Origin: Thermoproteaceae archaeon
Lineage (GTDB): Archaea > Thermoproteota > Thermoprotei > Thermoproteales > Thermoproteaceae
Direction of reading: 5' to 3'
Length of the DNA stretch: 18,382 nt
Assembly: GCA_020833025.1 (NCBI GenBank)
Contig: JAJHRB010000027.1
Span: 1 to 18,382, forward strand
This document shows positions 1,037-14,941 of the stretch, piece after piece; the stretch's first letter is position 1, and each line of letters starts with the position of its first letter. The position numbers and the translations under genes were made by a program. The notes under the pieces are model-generated. The model was not told the DNA's origin. It made no database searches and saw nothing but the letters and a program-made list of their open reading frames with translations.

Positions 1037-1062
1037 GCACTCTCGGTGCGGGCTGGTTATAA
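1037..1062 (-). promoter_or_regulatory. phoU leaderless promoter: TATA (TTATAA 1062-1057) plus CGCAC-N5-GTGC palindrome (1050-1037)
   Basis: Minus strand reads AATAAAAA-TTATAA-ccagcc-CGCAC-CGAGA-GTGC-T-GTG(start). Confidence 0.65.
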
Positions 1063-2100: not shown

Positions 2101-2571
2101 ATGCCCACATTTGTTTACAGCGCTTTGTGCAAGGGCTGTGGCAAGTGCGTCGACATCTGTCCCGCCGACAACATGCAGTTCAACCCAAGGACCAGGAAGG
2201 CCTACAACGCCGACCCCGTGAGCTGCTCGGAGTGTCTCAACTGCGTAAAGTACTGCCCGGAGCACGCGGTAGACGTGAGGTCGTACGCCGACTTCATGCC
2301 CCTCGGCGCTAGGGTCGGCGTGGTGAGGGACACCAAGAAGAATGTGATTTACTGGCGCCTAATGTTCAGAGATGGCACCATCAGGGACTTCGCCGTGCCC
2401 ATAAGGACGACGCCGTGGGGCAGCGCTAAGGGCGCGCTCGACTTCGCTGAGAGGGCGGACCTCGACTCCGAGCTGCTCTGCTGCGAGGACAACCCGGAGT
2501 TCCTTGGCTTTAAGGAGCTGCCGAGACCCAAGGAGCTGAAGTACTTCACAGGGCCTGAGTTCAGCGTGTAG
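2101..2571 (+). CDS. aprB: Adenylylsulfate (APS) reductase beta subunit, 2x[4Fe-4S], 156 aa
   Basis: CKGCGKCVDICP and CSECLNCVKYCP ferredoxin motifs, plus the AprB C-terminal tail MFRDG-IRDF-VPIRTTPWGS. Lies directly before aprA. Confidence 0.93.
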   Translation: MPTFVYSALCKGCGKCVDICPADNMQFNPRTRKAYNADPVSCSECLNCVKYCPEHAVDVRSYADFMPLGARVGVVRDTKKNVIYWRLMFRDGTIRDFAVPIRTTPWGSAKGALDFAERADLDSELLCCEDNPEFLGFKELPRPKELKYFTGPEFSV

Positions 2572-2573
2572 CC

Positions 2574-4472
2574 ATGAGCGTCAACCCGTTCAACCCGCCC
2601 GTTAGGGTCGTCGAGACGGACATTTTAGTGGTCGGAGGCGGGATGGCAGGCTGCGGCGCGGTGTTCGAGGCGAAGTACTGGTGCAGGGGCAAGTGCAGGG
2701 TGACGTTGGTCGAGAAGGCAAACCTCGAGAAGTCGGGCGCGGTCGGGATGGGGCTGTCGGCGACGAACCTGGGCGAGTTCACGGAGGACCCGGAGGACCC
2801 GAAGCCCGAGGAGTTCGTCAAGTACGTGAGGAACGAGTACTTTGGCATAGTGCGCGAGGACCTGGTGTACGACATAGCGAGGCACATGACCTCGACGATA
2901 AAGCTTCTCGACATGTGGGGCCTGCCGCTATGGCGCGACCCGAAGACAGGCAAGTTCCTCAGGTCGGGCCGCTGGCAGCACACAATTCACGGCGAGTCCT
3001 ACAAGGCAATTGTGGCCGAGCCGTGCCGCAAGTCGGCAGACGAGGTCTACGAGCGCGTGGTTGCCGTGTTCCCGCTGCTCGACGAGGCCGTCCCCAATAG
3101 AATTGCCGGCGTCGTCGGCTTCCACGTGAGGGACGGGACGATGTATGTGTTCAAGGCCAAGGCCGTTATAGTCACGGCGGGCGGCGGCTCGCTGATTTAC
3201 AGGCCGAGGGCGACGTCGGAGGGCATCGGCAGGGTGTGGTACCCGACCTGGGCCTCGGCCTCCGCGTACGGCTTGACGCTGCTGGCCGGCGCCGAGGCCG
3301 TCGAGATGTGCTCCAGGCTCGTTGTTGTCAGGTTCAAGGACGGCTACGGCCCCGTCGGCTACCCGTACCTGCTGTTCAAGATGAGATCCACGGACGTCTA
3401 CGGGAAGACGTGGGAGCCCCTGCCGGACGAGGCGAGGGCGGAGTACAGGAAGCTGTACGGCAAGTACGCCGACGCGAGGCCGACGCCAACCTTGCTCAGA
3501 GTGCTTACCACGATAAGGAACTGGAAGGAGGGGAGGGGGCCTGACATAATGCAGACGCAGGAGAAGCTCAAGACTGAGGAGGACATCCACATATTGTTCG
3601 AGGACTACCTCGACATGTCGCCGACACAAGCAATACTGTGGGCCGCGCAGAACATACACCCGGAGAAGAGGCCCTCCGAGCTCATGGCCACAGAGCCTTA
3701 CGTGCAGGGCAGCCACGCGACGCCGGGCGGCATGTGGGCGTCGGGGCCGCCGGACATAGCACCCCCCGAGTACAAGTGGGGCCCGAACAGGATGCTGACA
3801 GTCGAGGGTCTCTTCGGCGCCGGCGACACCGTCGGCGTCTCAGGCCACAAGTTCAGCAGCGGCTCGATTGCAGAGGGCAGGATCGCCGGCAAGTCGGCGG
3901 TCAGGTACGTGCTGACAAAGGCCAAGGACTACAGGCCGACCGTGAGCAAGGACACGATCGAGCGCTACAGAGAGATGCTGTACAGGCCCATGGCGTGGTA
4001 CGAGCTGAACAGGCCCCTCACGACAACGCCGGAGGTGCCCAAGCAGATGACGAACTGGTTTGAGATACACCCGAACTACCTGAACTGGTTCCAGCTGCTG
4101 AACCGCCTTATGAAGACAATGGACGAGTACGCCGCCGGCTGGAGCGCCGGCTACGTGACTAACATGTACCTGCTGAACCGCGCGTGGGAGCTGCTGAAGA
4201 TGCTCGAGGAGGACTTCAACTGCTGCGCAGGGGCGGCGAGCCTGCACGAGCTGCTGAGAGTGTGGGAGTTCTACCACAGGCTGATAACGGCACAGGCCGT
4301 CGTCTTCTCGATGATGAACAGGAAGGAGACGAGGTATCCCGGCTACTACATCAACGCCGACTACCCGCAGCTGGACGAGAAGAACTGGCACGTGTTCCTC
4401 CTGGTGAGGAGGGACCCGAAGACCGGCGAGTGGAGCTGGAGGACCGTACCGGTAATCCACTTCGTCCCGTAG
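2574..4472 (+). CDS. aprA: Adenylylsulfate (APS) reductase alpha subunit (FAD), 632 aa, intact
   Basis: DILVVGGGMAGCGA FAD motif, SGAVGMGLSATN, GRWQ-TIHGESYK, GRVWYPTW, RFKDGYGPVG, GSH, GHKFSSGS and RKETRYPGYY-NADYP-LD are all AprA signatures. Confidence 0.96.
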   Translation: MSVNPFNPPVRVVETDILVVGGGMAGCGAVFEAKYWCRGKCRVTLVEKANLEKSGAVGMGLSATNLGEFTEDPEDPKPEEFVKYVRNEYFGIVREDLVYDIARHMTSTIKLLDMWGLPLWRDPKTGKFLRSGRWQHTIHGESYKAIVAEPCRKSADEVYERVVAVFPLLDEAVPNRIAGVVGFHVRDGTMYVFKAKAVIVTAGGGSLIYRPRATSEGIGRVWYPTWASASAYGLTLLAGAEAVEMCSRLVVVRFKDGYGPVGYPYLLFKMRSTDVYGKTWEPLPDEARAEYRKLYGKYADARPTPTLLRVLTTIRNWKEGRGPDIMQTQEKLKTEEDIHILFEDYLDMSPTQAILWAAQNIHPEKRPSELMATEPYVQGSHATPGGMWASGPPDIAPPEYKWGPNRMLTVEGLFGAGDTVGVSGHKFSSGSIAEGRIAGKSAVRYVLTKAKDYRPTVSKDTIERYREMLYRPMAWYELNRPLTTTPEVPKQMTNWFEIHPNYLNWFQLLNRLMKTMDEYAAGWSAGYVTNMYLLNRAWELLKMLEEDFNCCAGAASLHELLRVWEFYHRLITAQAVVFSMMNRKETRYPGYYINADYPQLDEKNWHVFLLVRRDPKTGEWSWRTVPVIHFVP

Positions 4473-4510
4473 TCCAGCATCGCGCAGGAAGAAAAATGAA
4501 AAACTCCCGC

Positions 4511-4527
4511 TTTTCCTCTCTCGTTTT
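4511..4527 (+). terminator. Putative pyrimidine/T-tract terminator after aprA
   Basis: TTTTCCTCTCTCGTTTT about 40 nt after the stop codon. Confidence 0.4.
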
Positions 4528-4615
4528 GACCGGGGCCGCTCCTGCACTTCAGTATTTCAAGTCTCAATTTCGGCCGGCGGTCAGCAATAACGACCCGCCG
4601 AGTCTACACGCTCCA

Positions 4616-4632
4616 GTTAACAATGTTTATTT
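4616..4632 (+). promoter_or_regulatory. sat promoter: GTTAAC (4616-4621) plus TATA-like TTTATTT (4626-4632)
   Basis: The first T of the TATA-like box is 27 nt before ATG 4653, the same spacing as aprB. Confidence 0.6.
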
Positions 4633-4652
4633 GCGCCGGCACAAGGCGACAC

Positions 4653-6068
4653 ATGCCACGCGTGCCCGAGGTGTACTACGCGGGCGAGATACCGCCGCAC
4701 GGCGGCGGCACGCTCGTGTACAATGTCATTGACAACATAGACAAGGCGAGGCAGTACTGGGAGATAAAGACGAGAATAGAGATCAAGCCGACTCTGGACC
4801 CGAAGGGCGTGCCTGTCAGGAACGTCTACAGGGAGGTGATGTCAATAGCCTACGGCTTCTTCACGCCGCTCGAGGGCTTCATGACGCAGAATGAAGTAGA
4901 GTCCGTGCTGAAGGAGAGGCGCCTCCTCAGCGGCTGGCTGTTCCCGTACCCAATAGTGTTTGACGTGACCGAGGAGGAGTGGAAGGCGTCGGGCGCCAAG
5001 GTCGGCGACGAGGTCCTCCTGACGCTTAAGGGCAAGCCGCTTGCCGTCATCAAGGTCGAGGAGTTCTACAAGCTGCCTGAGGACAAGAAGGCCTTCGCCG
5101 ACGCCGTCTTCGGCACGCCGGAGAGGAACAAGGAAGTCGTGAGGGTGCCGTTTGACGAGAAGATGCCGGGCTGGCTGATATACCGCTGCTTGAAGTCCCA
5201 CGCAATTGCCGGGAGAGTGTGGGTGGTCAACCCGCCGAAGTTCAGGGAGCCCTACGTCAGGTTCTGGATACCGCCTGCCCAGAGCAGGGCGTACATAAAG
5301 GCCAAGGGCTGGAGGTTCGTGGTCGCGCACCAGACTAGGAACGTGCCCCACGTCGGTCACGAGATGCTGATGAGGAGGGCGCTGTTCGTCGCGGGCATCG
5401 GCGAGAGGCCGGCCGACGCAGTCCTGGTCAACGCGATAATAGGAGCGAAGAGGCGCGGCGACTACGTTGACGAGGCAATACTGGAGGGCCACGAGGCGCT
5501 GAGCCGCGGCGGCGGCTACTACTTCCACGCAGACCGCCACATAGTCACCATGACGCTGTGGGACATGAGGTACGGCAACCCGCTCGAGTCAATACTCCAC
5601 GGCATAATCAGGCAGAACATGGGCTGCACGCACCACATGTTCGGCAGGGACCACGCTGCAGTCGGCGACTACTACGACCCGTACGCCACCCAGTACCTGT
5701 GGACCAGGGGCCTGCCGAGCTACGGCATAAACGAGCCGCCCCACCTGACAGACAAGGGCCTCAAGATACGCCCGGTGCACATGGGCGAGCTGGCATTCTG
5801 CCCGAAGTGCGGCGAGTGGACGTACCTCGGCATACCGCTGGACGTGCCCGAGGTCAAGCAGCTGCCGCTCTGCGGCCACAAGCCCGAGAGGATATCCGGC
5901 TCGTTCCTGCGCGGGCTGATAATTGAGGGCATCAAGCCGCCGAGCGTTATAATGAGGCCCGAGGTCCACGACGTAATCGTGAAGTGGTGGAAGGTGTACG
6001 GCTACCCGTACGTGACGGACAAGTACCTCAAGCTTAAGGAGGAGCAGCTCGAGGTGGAGCTGCCATGA
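4653..6068 (+). CDS. sat: Sulfate adenylyltransferase (ATP sulfurylase), 471 aa
   Basis: PPHGG N-terminus, GFFTPLEGFM, HQTRNVPHVGHE (QxRN-xx-HxxH), NMGCTHHMFGRDHA, and a CPKC...CGH Zn site. ATG 4653 was chosen over 4623 by promoter spacing. Confidence 0.95.
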   Translation: MPRVPEVYYAGEIPPHGGGTLVYNVIDNIDKARQYWEIKTRIEIKPTLDPKGVPVRNVYREVMSIAYGFFTPLEGFMTQNEVESVLKERRLLSGWLFPYPIVFDVTEEEWKASGAKVGDEVLLTLKGKPLAVIKVEEFYKLPEDKKAFADAVFGTPERNKEVVRVPFDEKMPGWLIYRCLKSHAIAGRVWVVNPPKFREPYVRFWIPPAQSRAYIKAKGWRFVVAHQTRNVPHVGHEMLMRRALFVAGIGERPADAVLVNAIIGAKRRGDYVDEAILEGHEALSRGGGYYFHADRHIVTMTLWDMRYGNPLESILHGIIRQNMGCTHHMFGRDHAAVGDYYDPYATQYLWTRGLPSYGINEPPHLTDKGLKIRPVHMGELAFCPKCGEWTYLGIPLDVPEVKQLPLCGHKPERISGSFLRGLIIEGIKPPSVIMRPEVHDVIVKWWKVYGYPYVTDKYLKLKEEQLEVELP

Positions 6069-6427
6069 CTGCCGAGGTCAGGAAGTACAAGATCGGCCTG
6101 ATAATTGACGACAAGAGGTACGAGGCAATAAAGGGCACGCCGCTCGAGCAGAAGATTGAGCGCATGTTCGGCGGTTACATCAGGCTGCTGACGCTCGAGG
6201 TGGACGAAGAGACCGCAAGGCATGTACTCAAGGAGTTCCCGTCAGGCAGAATTGACGCGAGGGGCTTCCTGGAGGACCTGCCGGTTGCCTTCAAGAGGGC
6301 GCTGTTCGAGGCCGTCGTCAAGACCAAGAGCCTCGGCAAGGAAGCAATAGACGAGGTGTTCAAGAAAATCGATGAGATAAAGGCTGCGGCGGAGAAGGAG
6401 AAGGAATACGTGCCGCCGCCGGCATAG
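6065..6427 (+). CDS. Unknown 120-aa cytoplasmic protein translationally coupled to sat
   Basis: ATGA overlap with the sat stop and the same codon style as apr/sat. Globular-looking sequence with MFGG and FPSGRIDARGFLEDLP segments. Confidence 0.85.
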   Translation: MTAEVRKYKIGLIIDDKRYEAIKGTPLEQKIERMFGGYIRLLTLEVDEETARHVLKEFPSGRIDARGFLEDLPVAFKRALFEAVVKTKSLGKEAIDEVFKKIDEIKAAAEKEKEYVPPPA

Positions 6428-11427: not shown

Positions 11428-11460
11428 GAGCACAAATTAGTGCGGCACAATTAACGGTCA
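11428..11460. promoter_or_regulatory. 33-nt divergent promoter region lysE/nitrilase with a CGCAC-N6-GTGC palindrome (11444-11430)
   Basis: TTAATT (minus, from 11454) is 27 nt before the lysE ATG. Direct repeat GCACAA(A)TTA at 11430 and 11445. Confidence 0.55.
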
Positions 11461-12258
11461 ATGCCGCAGTTGAGGCTCGGAGTGGTGCAGGTACAGCCCG
11501 GCGCGCTGGAGCGCGTCCCGGAGCTCGTGGGGAGGTCAGAGCCCGACTTGCTGCTCCTGCCCGAGTACTCTACGTTTGACCCCACGGGGCTCCCGGCAGA
11601 TGATGTCTGGAGGCGGGCCACCACGGTGGAGGATTTCGCCGAGAGGCTGGCGCGCCTGGCGTCAGAGAGGGGGGCTCACGTTGCCGGCGGGTTCCTCGAG
11701 AGGGGGCCGAGGCCGAGAGTCTACAGCACTGCAATAGTCGTCGCGCCGGACGGGAGAGTCGTCGGCGCGTACAGGAAGACGCACTTGTTCGACGCGTACG
11801 GCTTCAGGGAGTCAGAATTCGCCGAGCCGGGCTCCGAGCTGTCGCAGGTGCTCGACATCAGGGGCGTGAGGGTTGCGCTCGCCGTGTGCTTCGAGCTGAG
11901 ATTTCCCGAGGTCTTCAGGGAGCTCGCCCTGGCGGGCGCCGAGCTCGCCGCGGTACCCGCGGCGTGGTACGCCGGGCCCCTCAAGGAGGAGGCCCTCCGC
12001 GTGCTGGCGAGGGCCCGCGCGGTGGAGAACGGGATGTTCGTCGCGGTCTCAGCGCTTTACGGCCAGCGGTTCACGGGCAGGTCTCTCGTCGTCGACCCGC
12101 TGGGCGTCGTGGTGGCAGATCTCGGCGTAGGGGAGAGGTACGCAGAGGTGCTCGTCGACACGAGCATGGTCAGCGAGGCGAGGAGGCTCGTGCCGTCCCT
12201 GCAGCTCAGGAGGCCAGAGCTGTACAGAAGGCTGTGCGGCGACGGCCGGCGCGACTAG
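11461..12258 (+). CDS. Carbon-nitrogen hydrolase (nitrilase superfamily, Nit-like amidase), 265 aa
   Basis: Catalytic triad motifs LPEY (Glu), YRKTHLFD (Lys) and VCFELRFPE (Cys), plus ARAVEN and G-S-VVDP-G. Confidence 0.93.
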   Translation: MPQLRLGVVQVQPGALERVPELVGRSEPDLLLLPEYSTFDPTGLPADDVWRRATTVEDFAERLARLASERGAHVAGGFLERGPRPRVYSTAIVVAPDGRVVGAYRKTHLFDAYGFRESEFAEPGSELSQVLDIRGVRVALAVCFELRFPEVFRELALAGAELAAVPAAWYAGPLKEEALRVLARARAVENGMFVAVSALYGQRFTGRSLVVDPLGVVVADLGVGERYAEVLVDTSMVSEARRLVPSLQLRRPELYRRLCGDGRRD

Positions 12259-13181
12259 CCTATCTCGCTGCGCAGCCTTGCCGCCAGCTCGTAGAGCTTC
12301 CTGAACGCCGCGGGGCGCGGCGTGCAGTCAACTGATTTCATCACGACGAAGGCATTCACCAGCGCCCTGTACTCAAAGCTCATCCTTATCCTCTCGTAAA
12401 AGCCGTCGAGGGCGGGAAACCCGTGGGCCCTGAGGAATTCGTAGAGCCCCTCGAGCTCGCCGCTCCTCGGCTTGGACCTGCCGAAGTTTACATTCCGGTC
12501 GGTGACGTGCCGCTCCCCGCCGCACGGCAGCAGAACCTTGCCGTACGCCGCCTTGAGCCTCCACGTCGCGCTGTCCGTGCTGTGGACTCCCAGGGCTGCC
12601 AGCACGGGCGTGACGGCCGGGCTGCCCATTCCCAGCACGTGGACCGGCCCCCCGAACTCCTCGACGGCGAGCCTTATGAACGAGATTGCCAGCTCCCTCG
12701 ACCCCCGCGGCGCGCCGCGCGATGTCAGCACGTAGGGCACGGCGGCGCCTATTGCGAGCGACGGCGCGCCGCCGTAAAGCCTCAGGAACCTCTCGAAGAG
12801 TGACTGGTCCCTGTACACGTGCAGGACGGGAACTACGGAGTCGCCGAGCGCCCTCCTCATCCTGACCCAGTTCTCGTAAGACTTCCTCATCTTCCTCTCG
12901 GCGGCGTCGGGGGGGTCGCCCGGCGACGGCGGCACGTCAAGCGAGAAGTAAAGCTGCGCGTCAACGCGCCTGTATATCTCGACGAGCCTGTCCACGTTAA
13001 TCGAGAGCCCGCGCTTGAGTATCTGGTAGCCGCCGGAGTCCATCCAGAGCTCGCCCTCGTACCCCAGCACTGCCCTGGGGTCCCGCTTTATCTCAAGCGC
13101 GTTCACCATGACGGCAGGGACGTCGAAGTAGAGCCAGGGTCTCGGCGACGCCGCGAGCGGCGTGCCGAGCGCGACTATCAC
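12255..13181 (-). CDS. TGT-fold (tRNA-guanine transglycosylase superfamily) protein with DpdA-like motifs, 308 aa
   Basis: WMDSGGYQ, SLDVPP, VVPVLH, AIGAAVP, VHVLGMG and STDSATWRLKAAYG motifs. No CxCxxC Zn motif and no PUA domain. Confidence 0.75.
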   Translation of the reverse strand: MIVALGTPLAASPRPWLYFDVPAVMVNALEIKRDPRAVLGYEGELWMDSGGYQILKRGLSINVDRLVEIYRRVDAQLYFSLDVPPSPGDPPDAAERKMRKSYENWVRMRRALGDSVVPVLHVYRDQSLFERFLRLYGGAPSLAIGAAVPYVLTSRGAPRGSRELAISFIRLAVEEFGGPVHVLGMGSPAVTPVLAALGVHSTDSATWRLKAAYGKVLLPCGGERHVTDRNVNFGRSKPRSGELEGLYEFLRAHGFPALDGFYERIRMSFEYRALVNAFVVMKSVDCTPRPAAFRKLYELAARLRSEIG

Positions 13182-13209
13182 CGCACATCTTGTGCGATGA
13201 CCATATAAA
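13178..13209 (-). promoter_or_regulatory. Promoter of the TGT-like gene: TATA TTTATAT (13209-13203) plus a 23-bp operator-like palindrome (13178-13200)
   Basis: TCA-c-CGCACA-tct-TGTGCG-a-TGA, with arms matching 9/10, overlaps the GTG start. Confidence 0.65.
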
Positions 13210-13264: not shown

Positions 13265-13534
13265 CTATGCTTCCTTCTTCCCTCTCAACTCCTCCATCCG
13301 CTTGTCAATTTCCTTCAGCACGACGTCGGAAATATACTTCCGCAGCTCTTCCAAGTACTTCAGCTCCTCCTCCTTGCTCCACCCCGGCGGGGACCGGCGG
13401 AGCCACCAGAGCCAGCGGCACCGCCCTGGCTGCCATCCGGGCCTGGCTGGCGGCGGCAGGTGGCTCCACGGCCCGTGCCCTGGATACGGCCCGTGCCAGC
13501 CCCAGCGATGCCACCACTTCCACCACGGCGGCAT
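13265..13534 (-). CDS. DUF5320-like protein, 89 aa (Trp/Pro/Gly/His-rich N-terminus plus C-terminal coiled coil)
   Basis: MPPWWKWWHRWGW... low-complexity head and an EEELKYLEELRK...KEIDKRMEEL tail. Adjacent to DUF134. ATG lies 27-28 nt after TTAATAA. Confidence 0.7.
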   Translation of the reverse strand: MPPWWKWWHRWGWHGPYPGHGPWSHLPPPARPGWQPGRCRWLWWLRRSPPGWSKEEELKYLEELRKYISDVVLKEIDKRMEELRGKKEA

Positions 13535-13537
13535 GTC

Positions 13538-13562
13538 TGAAACATGTTTCACTGATTATTAA
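13538..13562 (-). promoter_or_regulatory. DUF5320 promoter: TTAATAA (13562-13556) plus the perfect 14-bp palindrome TGAAACATGTTTCA (13538-13551)
   Basis: Seen directly. The palindrome lies between TATA and ATG and contains the DUF134 stop codon. Confidence 0.7.
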
Positions 13563-13899
13563 GCTTTTCCTCGCCGGCCCTCCCGCACCTGGCAACTCTG
13601 ATCGGCCTCCTTCTGGCGAGAGCCCCCGCGATCTTGTACCTGGCCTGCTCGAGCACGCGCCAGAATGTCGCCTTTGAGAGGCCCATTCTCCGCGCCGCCT
13701 CCTCAGTAGTTAGGCCCTCGACGTGCACTAAGAATACCGCCTCAAGCTCGTAATCGCAGAGCATCACGCAGTCGGCAGCTGCCGGGGCCTCGTGCGGGCT
13801 CACCGGCACGTAGACGGCGGGCTCTACCGGCAGGCTCGCGCGCATGGGGCTCCTGGCCCCGGCCGCTCCCCACCGGTGGCGGCATCTACGCCTGCGCAC
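13549..13899 (-). CDS. DUF134 family predicted DNA-binding (HTH) protein, 116 aa
   Basis: V-L-DYELEAV-LVH-EGLT-EEAARRMGLSKATFWRVLEQARYKIA-AL is the DUF134 core. GTG 13899 has GAGG upstream, 10 nt after the purP stop. Confidence 0.8.
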   Translation of the reverse strand: MRRRRCRHRWGAAGARSPMRASLPVEPAVYVPVSPHEAPAAADCVMLCDYELEAVFLVHVEGLTTEEAARRMGLSKATFWRVLEQARYKIAGALARRRPIRVARCGRAGEEKLNNQ

Positions 13900-13909
13900 G
13901 GCGCCTCGC

Positions 13910-14941
13910 TCAGGAGAAGAGCCGCTCGAGCCTGCCCCGCCTCGCAGCCTCGCGGATCTCGTGGGCAATTCTCTCTCCCATGTCCATCGGCCTGTCGAAG
14001 TACAGAACCGAGTAGGGCGACCCGTAGCCCATGTACGTGTTCGTCCCGGCGACTATCCTCCCGGAGAACTCGAACACGACGATTGTCAGGTCGTCGCGTA
14101 TTATAGACTCTAGGCAGTAGGGCCCCGCCATACTGCACCCCACGAGCTCCTCGACGGCGCGCGCGAACTGGACCCCGTACCTCCACACAGTCGGCAGGAG
14201 TGACTCCCTGAGGACCAGCGGGAGGTTCCCGACGACGACAAACGTCGGCTCAGCAAGGCCGAGAGTCCTGCCGTCGACGTTCGACTCGTACCTCACGTCA
14301 GCGCCGAAGACCTCGACCCTCTCGTAGACGGGAGACGCGAAGTAGTGGTAGTACGCCGGGACGCCAATTATGTACTCCTGAATTACGGCGCCCTCGGCCA
14401 GCCCTCCCGACGCCCTCACTCTGGCCTCGAGCTCCTCCCTGCTCCTCGCGATGAAGTACCCCCTGCCGCCCTTGGCGCCGGGGAGCTTCACGATGACAGG
14501 CCCGTCGACCTCGCTCGCGGACCTGTAGACCCTCGGCGTCTGCACTCCCGCCCTCTCGAGCAGCAGCATTTTCTTCCGCTGGTCAGCCTCCCACGCGATC
14601 AGCTCCCTGCAGCCGAGCGTGGGGACCGGGGCCTCCAGCGCCTGCCTCCAGCCGACGTACTCGACGTAGGAGCCGTGGGGCACTAGCACGGCGCAGCTCT
14701 CCACGAGACTCTCGGCGACCTTCCTAAAGTTGCCGAGGTCGGCTCTCCAGACCTCGTCTATGAAGCCGAACTGTCTGTAAAACTCCGCCGCCCTCTCGCT
14801 CCCGGCGACGGCAATTGTCCTGAAGCCGTATCTCTTGGCCCCTCTGAGAATCTGCAGCGCGGTGTGCGAGGCTATTGTCGCTACCGCGAGCCTATCGGGG
14901 TCGTAGCGTTTCAGTGCCTGCGCCACGCCGGCAGTTGACAC
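13910..14941 (-). CDS. purP: FAICAR synthetase PurP family (ATP-grasp, formate-dependent), 343 aa
   Basis: ATIASHTALQIL-GAK, PHGSY, AKGGRGYF, IQEYI-G-P-Y-HYF-SP, RYESNVDG, GN-P-VLRESLL, GPYCLE, FEFSGRIVAGTN and GERIA-EI. Confidence 0.88.
   Translation of the reverse strand: MSTAGVAQALKRYDPDRLAVATIASHTALQILRGAKRYGFRTIAVAGSERAAEFYRQFGFIDEVWRADLGNFRKVAESLVESCAVLVPHGSYVEYVGWRQALEAPVPTLGCRELIAWEADQRKKMLLLERAGVQTPRVYRSASEVDGPVIVKLPGAKGGRGYFIARSREELEARVRASGGLAEGAVIQEYIIGVPAYYHYFASPVYERVEVFGADVRYESNVDGRTLGLAEPTFVVVGNLPLVLRESLLPTVWRYGVQFARAVEELVGCSMAGPYCLESIIRDDLTIVVFEFSGRIVAGTNTYMGYGSPYSVLYFDRPMDMGERIAHEIREAARRGRLERLFS

Follow-up and report, generated by a model that had tools for sequence, protein, structure and literature searches.

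A single-domain, zinc-less TGT paralogue in the core genome of Thermoproteales: a candidate DpdA-like enzyme for 7-deazaguanine insertion into DNA

A Pyrobaculum gene within an 18,382-nucleotide stretch of archaeal DNA (hereafter the window) encodes a TGT paralogue whose closest studied relatives, by sequence comparison, are the 'DpdA' proteins of the crenarchaeal viruses STSV1/2 and SIRV. Within the TGT superfamily it is divergent, and the curated Pfam model PF01702 misses it, its score of 18.7 bits lying below the gathering cut-off of 26.3, and its family has so far been annotated only as 'tRNA-ribosyltransferase' or 'hypothetical'. It is best read as an active, single-domain, zinc-less base-exchange enzyme, as predicted by homology, and we regard the chances as evenly balanced that it is a DpdA-like enzyme which inserts preQ0 into DNA. 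The coding sequence (P0001; positions 12255..13181, minus strand, as for all features given below) is intact and open throughout its 308 aa from a GTG start, and carries all the motifs that the initial annotation of this locus had listed.

Roughly 25 nt 5' of the GTG, the sequence reads as a TATA-like box, TTTATAT (13203..13209), which suggests that the gene may possess its own promoter and produce a leaderless mRNA; the sequencing runs listed with the stretch are of hot-spring and sediment metagenome DNA only, with no RNA run among them. Between this box and the start codon lies a palindrome, GCACA-N3-TGTGC (13183..13195), which is possibly an operator, and the pattern GCAC-N5-7-GTGC also occurs directly 5' of the phoU and lysE starts, its three occurrences in the window being not above chance (1.8 expected). 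According to Pfam, the neighbours of the gene in the window are a CN-hydrolase, LysE, DUF134 and PurP. Searches of the window with Pfam and PADLOC retrieved no defence or dpd genes beside it, dpdB (ParB-like ATPase), dpdC and dpdD-K all being absent among its neighbours, as had been stated initially for dpdB/C and for defence genes.

The AlphaFold model of the paralogue (pLDDT 95.9) confidently predicts the (beta/alpha)8 TGT fold. Its structural matches are arcTGT (1iq8; Z 27.4 over 283 residues, rmsd 2.5 A), bacterial TGT (3unt; Z 22.1) and DpdA (7ui4; Z 21.9 over 264 residues), while unrelated TIM barrels stay at Z <= 15, well below these values, and among viral structures a rudivirus protein matches best. 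The model spans residues 34-360 of arcTGT only, and the protein stops after the catalytic barrel, so that C1, C2 and PUA are all missing; because its first residue corresponds to arcTGT residue 34, the N-terminal lid is absent as well, as it is in DpdA. When the single protein is searched against the PDB, arcTGT is the only match, and DpdA 7ui4 appears only with the family profile, at 5.6e-5 as compared with 8e-17 for arcTGT, the best match. Against TIGR00432, the model of canonical TgtA, the paralogue reaches 43.6 bits with a cut-off of 350, and no match at E <= 1 was obtained to the ArcS model NF040592, to which the genome's own TgtA matches at 1.1e-25, or to the DpdA models NF041059 (NCBIfam) and PADLOC. 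The best PHROG is phrog_887 (E = 7e-21).

The residues on which base exchange would depend are in place. By alignment to 1iq8 and 7ui4, D48, within DSGGYQ (residues 48-53; 13023..13040), corresponds to the general acid/base residue Asp95 of arcTGT and DpdA; the invariant D82, within LDVPP (residues 81-85; 12927..12941), corresponds to the base-recognition residue Asp130; and the invariant D203, within STDSATW (residues 201-207; 12561..12581), corresponds to the nucleophile, Asp249 of arcTGT and Asp256 of DpdA. IGAAVPY (residues 144-150; 12732..12752) represents the GG-x-VP loop of the pocket for 7-deazaguanine; it aligns with IGGVVPL of arcTGT and MGGMVPL of DpdA, and its G145, V148 and P149 are conserved in the family. 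Over 104 homologues, D48, S49, G50, G51, Q53, D82, P84, P118, H121, D203, W207 and K210-K215 (the latter forming KAAYGK, residues 210-215) are either invariant or conserved to 90% or more, and this conservation indicates that the motifs are not a product of chance.

Two further characters set the protein apart from tRNA TGTs. The first is PVLH (residues 118-121; 12819..12830), placed by a profile alignment to 7ui4 together with a multiple alignment: H121 aligns with His181 in the VAHG motif of bacterial DpdA, for which a role in base recognition has been described (PMC10164549), whereas tRNA TGTs have Gln at this site. The counterparts of PVLH in the multiple alignment are PCFH in phage DpdA1, PVYH in phiSM and APLQ in the genome's own TgtA. 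The second is a zinc-less C-terminal module (residues 205-300; 12282..12569), delimited by a module HMM and by alignment and marked by the motifs WR.KAAYGK, GGERHV, NFG and FEYRALVNAW. An HMM built from residues 205-300 alone recovers STSV2 DpdA at 2e-17 and Seuratvirus DpdA1 at 6.5e-4 (Z = 1e6) and gives no match to the genome's own TgtA, similarity to which ends at about residue 220. The DpdA-like motifs proposed initially are therefore genuine, the DS(A/S)TW...AAYG block and the module aligning with phage DpdA1 and not with TgtA. Likewise, the paralogue has no CxCxxC motif (it contains two Cys in total) and no PUA, as proposed, although CxCxxC is likewise missing from the genome's canonical TgtA, where only C272-x4-C277 is present, so that absence of the zinc motif alone does not separate the two proteins here.

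A separate canonical tgtA is indeed present in the genome (G000:C34:20900-22231; 531 bits against TIGR00432), and phylogeny keeps the paralogue distinct from it. In a tree without bacterial DpdA sequences, canonical TgtA and bacterial TGT are set off from the paralogue family by a branch with 99% SH-aLRT support; the protein groups with crenarchaeal virus DpdA, and phage DpdA1 forms a separate clade. Clustering with TgtA, which would have spoken against the initial proposal, was rejected by the AU test (p-AU 0.0008, delta lnL 77). ArcTGT/TgtA (1IQ8, TIGR00432) thus shares the Asp triad and the GG-x-VP pocket loop with the paralogue and is its best match both among solved structures and among PDB profiles, but it has C1, C2, PUA and Gln where the paralogue lacks these domains and has His at the Gln site. 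On the basis of the low TIGR00432 score, the missing C1/C2(/PUA) and the separate clade, an identity as canonical TgtA was rejected.

The nearest relatives are the crenarchaeal virus proteins. STSV2_15 is the closest one with any experimental context (34% identity; blastp E = 1e-42; family HMM 8e-60); for SIRV2 gp13 the values are 27% identity and 1.6e-27 with the family HMM. These crenarchaeal virus DpdA proteins (STSV2_15/STSV1 ORF18 and SIRV2 gp13 = ORF310; PHROG 887) are also zinc-less, single-domain and of about 290-310 aa, and they have in common with the paralogue the motifs DSGGYQ, LD.P, PV(I/L)H and D(S/T)STW/Y as well as the C-terminal module. They differ in that dsDNA viruses carry their genes as accessory ones, whereas the Pyrobaculum gene is chromosomal and core to its order. 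The STSV2 DpdA gene adjoins genes for a DNA methyltransferase, a thymidylate synthase and an ArcS core. It has been reported that STSV2 DNA carries dCDG at 0.04% of G, and STSV2_15 was named DpdA in the same work, which could not account for this dCDG (Cui et al. 2023). The dCDG is the only direct datum on these viral proteins, whose modification of DNA is putative. A pattern scan for the family returned 110 cellular loci and only three viral contigs, and the best reading is that the paralogue belongs to a mainly cellular archaeal clade from which the 'DpdA' of STSV1/2 and SIRV arose as well.

Phage DpdA1 (Enterobacteria phage 9g/CAjan type; Seuratvirus VogelGryff), which has been demonstrated experimentally to insert preQ0 into DNA (PMC6884629), likewise has the catalytic Asp pair and the P-x-x-H His, and its DSSSW..AAAFG block and zinc-less C-terminal module align with the paralogue, the family HMM matching it over its full length at 4.6e-13. 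On the other hand, identity is only about 21-24%, and the phage genes lie within folE-queD-queE-queC clusters, an arrangement that the gene in Pyrobaculum does not share. Bacterial DpdA (Salmonella Montevideo, 7UI4, NF041059) has the TGT fold in common with the paralogue, which possesses the equivalents of Asp95, Asp130, Asp256 and His181, and both lack an N-terminal beta-sheet lid. However, the paralogue is shorter (308 aa versus 406 aa) and has neither the 70-residue helical bundle of Ins8 nor the structural Zn site CXCX2CX22H that is conserved in the bacterial family (PMC10164549). With no NF041059 or PADLOC match, no such Zn site and no dpdB/dpdC, membership of bacterial DpdA was rejected; the DpdA kinship suggested in the initial annotation thus stands for the shared motifs and the viral type of protein, and fails for the bacterial one.

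That annotation had further regarded the gene as a possible orphan archaeal system, a view which its distribution contradicts. The paralogue is single-copy and occurs in 61 of the 62 genomes of the order, and its relatives link it to the amidinotransferase QueF-L and to a HerA-family ATPase. The QueF-L gene overlaps or abuts it in all seven Thermoproteus genomes and lies 3-33 kb away in Pyrobaculum, while for several genera that have the paralogue no QueF-L was found by PF14489. In the genome studied here queC, tgtA and QueF-L are all present, on contigs other than that of the window. The cell has a single QueF-L amidinotransferase. A search of the genome with PF17884 for the ArcS C1 core (DUF5591) produced only a weak match inside tgtA. 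Radical-SAM genes near the paralogue in Pyrodictium and T. tenax were considered as QueE and discarded, as they match generic radical-SAM models only.

The vertical, single-copy inheritance of a core gene is also what would be expected of a second housekeeping RNA-guanine transglycosylase, which would place preQ0 in tRNA at a site distinct from that of TgtA, or in another stable RNA, for QueF-L to convert into archaeosine. This is a serious rival to a role in DNA, although we think it rather doubtful. It would accommodate the adjacency or translational coupling to QueF-L in Thermoproteus, given that preQ0-tRNA is a demonstrated substrate of QueF-L (PMC5485725), and it agrees with arcTGT being the best match by structure and by profile, with the ability of the catalytic domain of bacterial TGT to recognise tRNA without a PUA, and with the presence of a Trm112-like gene in the vicinity in some genomes of Pyrobaculum and Thermoproteus. 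Yet every tRNA-binding domain of arcTGT is absent, the DpdA-type His replaces the Gln of tRNA TGTs, and the family stands phylogenetically apart from both TgtA and bacterial TGT. A function in RNA would moreover leave unexplained the relatives in dsDNA viruses and the gene cassettes described below, and a literature search yielded no additional 7-deazaguanosine position in Thermoproteales RNA.

The linkage to HerA can be read directly from the genomes of four sister genera, in which a HerA-family ATPase gene is adjacent to the paralogue (2/2, 5/5, 2/2 and 12/12 genomes for g3, g6, g7 and g9), its relative orientation varying between genera. In basal sister clades, the gene is found in cassettes together with a stand-alone ArcS-C1/DUF5591 protein, HerA and a giant KAP-like NTPase, to which NurA or a Vut_1 preQ0-type transporter is sometimes added; the hosts include Aenigmatarchaeota, Njordarchaeota and Bathyarchaeia, among others. 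The HerA paralogue of Thermoproteales is 25-28% identical to cassette HerA and similarly distant from the genome's other HerA paralogues, and by this comparison its orthology to cassette HerA could not be shown. No homologue of the giant KAP protein, the cassette NurA or DUF5591 was found in the Pyrobaculum genome, and complex prediction for its HerA paralogue, encoded at G000:C14, L081:1081-2673, with the TGT paralogue returned a score of 0.00, which speaks neither for nor against binding.

These same linkages bear on two other explanations. The position next to QueF-L in Thermoproteus, and in other archaea next to DUF5591 proteins that stand alone, might reflect a non-exchanging accessory subunit of a split archaeosine synthase that binds the preQ0-bearing nucleotide and hands it on to QueF-L or a stand-alone ArcS-core protein, in the manner of the TGT-like N-terminal domain of ArcS, and it is known that the N-terminal and C1 domains of ArcS can be separately encoded (Cui et al. 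2023). We consider this improbable: the paralogue does not match NF040592, whereas the genome's own TgtA does; its three catalytic Asp residues show complete or almost complete conservation, for which an inert scaffold would have no need; QueF-L works alone in vitro (PMC5485725); the DUF5591 gene is absent from the Pyrobaculum genome; and several genera combine the paralogue with no QueF-L detectable by PF14489. Alternatively, the occurrence of relatives next to nuclease-helicase pairs could indicate an eraser that defends the cell by removing 7-deazaguanine from invading viral DNA, thereby restoring guanine or creating an abasic site. The chemistry of TGT enzymes can run in reverse, homologues exist in crenarchaeal viruses and STSV2 DNA contains 7-deazaguanine, and glycosylases directed against 7-deazaguanine DNA are a known type of defence (bioRxiv 10.1101/2025.10.29.685425); nevertheless, association with amidinotransferases (QueF-L, DUF5591) and with a Vut_1-type transporter speaks for writing rather than erasing, and order-wide core conservation is unlike that of known defence genes, so that there is little to recommend an eraser.

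For the insertion of preQ0 into DNA, we infer by homology that D203 would attack C1' of the target guanosine with release of guanine, and that D48 would deprotonate the incoming preQ0, which takes its place. The preQ0 would be supplied by the cell's own FolE/QueD/QueE/QueC pathway, and double-stranded DNA would be the likeliest substrate. The single QueF-L could then turn the inserted dPreQ0 into 2'-deoxyarchaeosine, and the HerA-family ATPase may open or present the DNA, by analogy with DpdB for bacterial DpdA. A DNA target is favoured because H121, the missing lid and the C-terminal module are derived characters of the DpdA type, and because the nearest relatives are viral DpdA and the HerA/NurA/KAP contexts are DNA-linked. 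It is weakened, in turn, by the single-copy core pattern, which is typical of housekeeping RNA modification and unusual for restriction-modification or defence; by the action of the best-linked partner, QueF-L, on preQ0-tRNA; by a profile and structure closer to arcTGT than to bacterial DpdA; by the absence of DNA-related or defence neighbours in the Pyrobaculum window; and by the failure to show orthology of the HerA paralogue to cassette HerA.

In the literature searched, reports of 7-deazaguanine in DNA concern phages, archaeal viruses and patchily distributed bacterial Dpd islands only, and no paper was found that connects 7-deazaguanine with Thermoproteales DNA, or a studied TGT with rudiviruses. 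Against this background a wider proposal can be made, tentatively and as one that we hold to be possible without expecting it to be correct: that the Thermoproteales, and probably further hyperthermophilic Crenarchaeota (Pyrodictiaceae and Ignisphaera, for example), have dPreQ0 or 2'-deoxyarchaeosine in the DNA of their own chromosomes as an ancient, vertically inherited trait. The modification would be written by the DpdA-like enzyme and a HerA-family motor, with one QueF-L serving both tRNA and DNA; the DpdA genes of STSV and SIRV would go back to a capture from this cellular lineage, and the cassettes with HerA, NurA, KAP and an ArcS core would represent a restriction-competent mobile form.

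In conclusion, a core-genome enzyme of the DpdA type throughout a hyperthermophilic order would point to a lineage-wide cellular modification of DNA bases rather than to an accessory defence. If this is true, the archaeosine pathway of tRNA would also feed DNA modification, and questions would arise on the stability of DNA at 90-100 C, on the marking of self and non-self in relation to crenarchaeal viruses and on the origin of viral DpdA. If the target is instead RNA, the gene would reveal a 7-deazaguanosine site not known before, along with a second RNA transglycosylase in archaea. In either case, a function would be assigned to a family that has so far been recorded under uninformative names.

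The TGT-like gene is an uninterrupted reading frame of 308 codons with a GTG start (window 12255-13181, reverse strand; ORF list and translation). A TATA-like box, TTTATAT, read from the sequence at 13203-13209 on the same strand, lies about 25 nt 5' of the start and 83 nt separate the gene from the preceding one, which makes a promoter of its own and a leaderless transcript most likely. It has also been observed that a palindrome, GCAC-N5-7-GTGC, directly precedes three start codons, those of phoU, lysE and the TGT-like gene (window 1037-1049, 11430-11443 and 13183-13195); its count in the window is no higher than chance (three found vs 1.8 expected), and these strikingly placed copies may constitute a shared operator. 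The motifs named in the initial annotation were all located in the protein, namely DSGGYQ (residues 48-53), LDVPP (81-85), PVLH (118-121), STDSATW (201-207) and KAAYGK (210-215). These motifs are under selection: across an alignment of 104 homologues, D82, P84, P118, G145, H181, G184 and D203 are invariant, and conservation reaches 90% or more at D48, S49, G50, G51, Q53, H121, W207, K210-K215, E223, R224 and R229.

As had been claimed, the protein lacks the CxCxxC zinc motif (it contains two cysteines in total) and stops directly past the catalytic barrel, with no PUA domain. The canonical TgtA of this genome likewise lacks CxCxxC, with only C272-x4-C277, and thus the missing zinc motif alone does not separate the two paralogues here. 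That TgtA ends in a Gly/Pro-rich tail and not in the clear PUA domain expected at this place.

The protein scores below cut-off against the Pfam TGT model (18.7 bits; cut-off 26.3) and TIGR00432 (43.6 bits; cut-off 350), and its top library match is PHROG 887 (7e-21). Its best relatives in phage and virus collections are the Sulfolobus viruses STSV1 and STSV2 (34-35% identity, E = 4e-35) and SIRV rudiviruses, with weak full-length matches to Seuratvirus DpdA1 and the DpdA of Cellulophaga phage phiSM. STSV2_15 has been named DpdA, and dCDG was reported at 0.04% of G in STSV2 DNA by a route that the authors left unexplained (Cui et al. 2023). The very confident AlphaFold model (pLDDT 95.9) matches arcTGT 1iq8 first (Z 27.4 over 283 residues, at an rmsd of 2.5 A), followed by bacterial TGT (Z 22.1), bacterial DpdA 7ui4 (Z 21.9) and QTRT2 (Z 20.6). 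Among predicted viral structures, the top match is a rudivirus protein.

Three derived characters link the protein with DpdA-type enzymes rather than with tRNA TGTs: H121 aligns with the base-recognizing His181 of DpdA, where tRNA TGTs have Gln; the model starts at arcTGT residue 34, so that the N-terminal lid is missing, as noted for DpdA; and an HMM built only from the C-terminal module (residues 205-300) detects STSV2 DpdA (2e-17) and phage DpdA1 (6.5e-4, Z set to 1e6) and does not find the genome's own TgtA. In these respects the proposed DpdA likeness stands, but it does not extend to the bacterial DpdA family proper, as searches with NF041059 (DpdA) and PADLOC gave no match. The ArcS model NF040592 gave none either. 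Identity with bacterial DpdA is excluded, the protein having neither the zinc site nor the large Ins8 bundle which define that family.

With E. coli Tgt as the root, an IQ-TREE phylogeny of 55 sequences places canonical TgtA on the first branch and then gathers all the 'orphan' TGT-like proteins into a single group (99% SH-aLRT). Inside this, a group of 33 sequences unites the Thermoproteales proteins with chromosomal proteins of Pyrodictiaceae, Ignicoccus and Ignisphaera, STSV/SIRV viral proteins and cassette proteins of other archaea, with phage DpdA1 and phiSM as a neighbouring group on long branches. Clustering with archaeal TgtA, named at the outset as contrary evidence, was looked for and is not seen, since a tree constrained to join the Thermoproteales clade with canonical TgtA is worse by 77 log-likelihood units and is rejected (p-AU 0.0008); with bacterial TGT added to the constrained side, p = 0.038 (AU test). 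CxCxxC is retained in another, separate clade, made up of about 93 representative TGT-like proteins (P0108-P0226) of about 360 aa. Of five members compared with NCBIfam, one is a true TgtA (P0193) and the other four do not reach the cut-offs for TgtA, Tgt, DpdA or ArcS.

The window derives from a hot-spring Pyrobaculum MAG (126 contigs, 94% complete), in which the expected separate canonical tgtA is present on contig C34 (20894-22528, equivalent to L013:8894-10528; 531 bits vs TIGR00432), 5 kb from queC. The genome has a single QueF-like (QueF-L) gene, on contig C8, and a search for an ArcS/DUF5591 gene found none. The immediate neighbours of the TGT-like gene encode a CN-hydrolase, LysE, DUF134, a 95-aa W/P-rich ORF and PurP; the reported absence of flanking dpd or defence genes among them holds by both Pfam and PADLOC. 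The 95-aa ORF (window 13265-13552, reverse strand) follows the DUF134 HTH gene (13549-13968, reverse strand) with overlapping stop and start, has an extremely Trp/Pro/Gly-rich N-terminal half and a coiled-coil-like C-terminus, and has no family match in Pfam, NCBIfam or PADLOC. Elsewhere in the window, an aprB-aprA-sat cluster (APS reductase, ATP sulfurylase) with a DUF6955 gene (2101-6427) indicates dissimilatory sulfur metabolism in this Pyrobaculum.

Of the order's 62 genomes, 61 carry the TGT-like gene, almost always as a single copy, and these include all 37 of high quality and represent all nine genera; in the rest of the class, it is absent from the other families save one genome. Among named genomes, those of Pyrobaculum, Thermoproteus, Vulcanisaeta, Caldivirga and Thermocladium have it. 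It is patchier in Pyrodictiaceae, Hyperthermus, Ignicoccus, Ignisphaera, Aenigmatarchaeota, Bathyarchaeia, Njordarchaeota and Nitrososphaerota, and the order containing Pyrodictium has it in 54 of 151 sampled genomes. One Pyrobaculum MAG (G049) carries three copies (C1:40286-41170, C26:19462-20337 and C21:18563-19435), each 61-64% identical to the 308-aa protein, which could reflect real paralogy or a mixed-strain bin. Because a family-pattern scan returned 110 cellular loci and, among 2.9 million viral contigs, only STSV1, STSV2 and one other, the family is mainly cellular, and the viral copies may well be captures. Existing annotation of the cellular family reads only 'tRNA-ribosyltransferase' or 'hypothetical', and a literature search found no paper describing it.

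It is hardly in doubt that the predicted chemistry is the exchange of guanine for a 7-deazaguanine, the incoming base most likely being preQ0 from the cell's own pathway. That the substrate is RNA is a tentative alternative, and a somewhat doubtful one: it is favoured by the housekeeping-like, order-wide single-copy pattern, by the closer structural match to arcTGT and by linkage to QueF-L, whose action on tRNA is proven (PMC5485725). Within the class, QueF-L is confined to four genera, each carrying the TGT-like gene, which it overlaps or abuts in 7/7 Thermoproteus genomes; in Pyrobaculum the two genes share a replicon and are 3-33 kb apart.

On the side of DNA, a HerA-family ATPase (DUF87, ~525 aa), distinct from the NurA-linked HerA and under every HerA equivalog cut-off, directly adjoins the TGT-like gene in each of four genera (g3, 2/2 genomes; g6, 5/5; g7, 2/2 assessable; g9, 12/12), co-directional in three and convergent in one. 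This linkage persists through rearrangement and therefore suggests functional coupling; the paralogue in this genome lies on a different contig, C14. A small protein of ~96-128 aa and no known family is encoded directly 3' of the TGT-like gene in genera g3, g5 and g9 (L074:9002-9349, L069:7625-7954 and L067:7718-8008); a homologue was looked for in this genome and not found.

In basal clades of the 33-sequence group, spanning diverse archaea, the gene belongs to a recurrent cassette whose other members are a HerA-like ATPase, a ~1400-aa KAP-NTPase-like protein and a stand-alone ArcS-core (DUF5591) protein sharing ~34% identity with STSV2_16, often joined by NurA, sometimes by a Vut_1 (YhhQ-type preQ0) transporter and once by an integrase (L055:5042-12576, L057:1-7719, L087:1-6987, L088:1-7856 and L089:1-8008; also L090 of Aenigmatarchaeota, and L137 and L162 of Njordarchaeota). 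Its parts are homologous from contig to contig, and as a whole it resembles a Dpd-like island for DNA modification and restriction, of a kind so far undescribed. The cassette parallels the DpdA2 and ArcS pairing of phage nt-1, which gave dPreQ0 and dG+ in E. coli plasmids (Cui et al. 2023), and also the case of bacterial DpdA, which requires the ATPase DpdB (PMC10164549).

Taken with the DpdA-type characters and the nearest relatives in dsDNA viruses, these HerA, NurA and KAP contexts give DNA about an even chance of being the target. An accessory, ArcS-like role for the protein is improbable, and one as an eraser or in defence slightly more so. What is new here is a DpdA-type transglycosylase in a core-genome setting, which merits a direct mass-spectrometry test.
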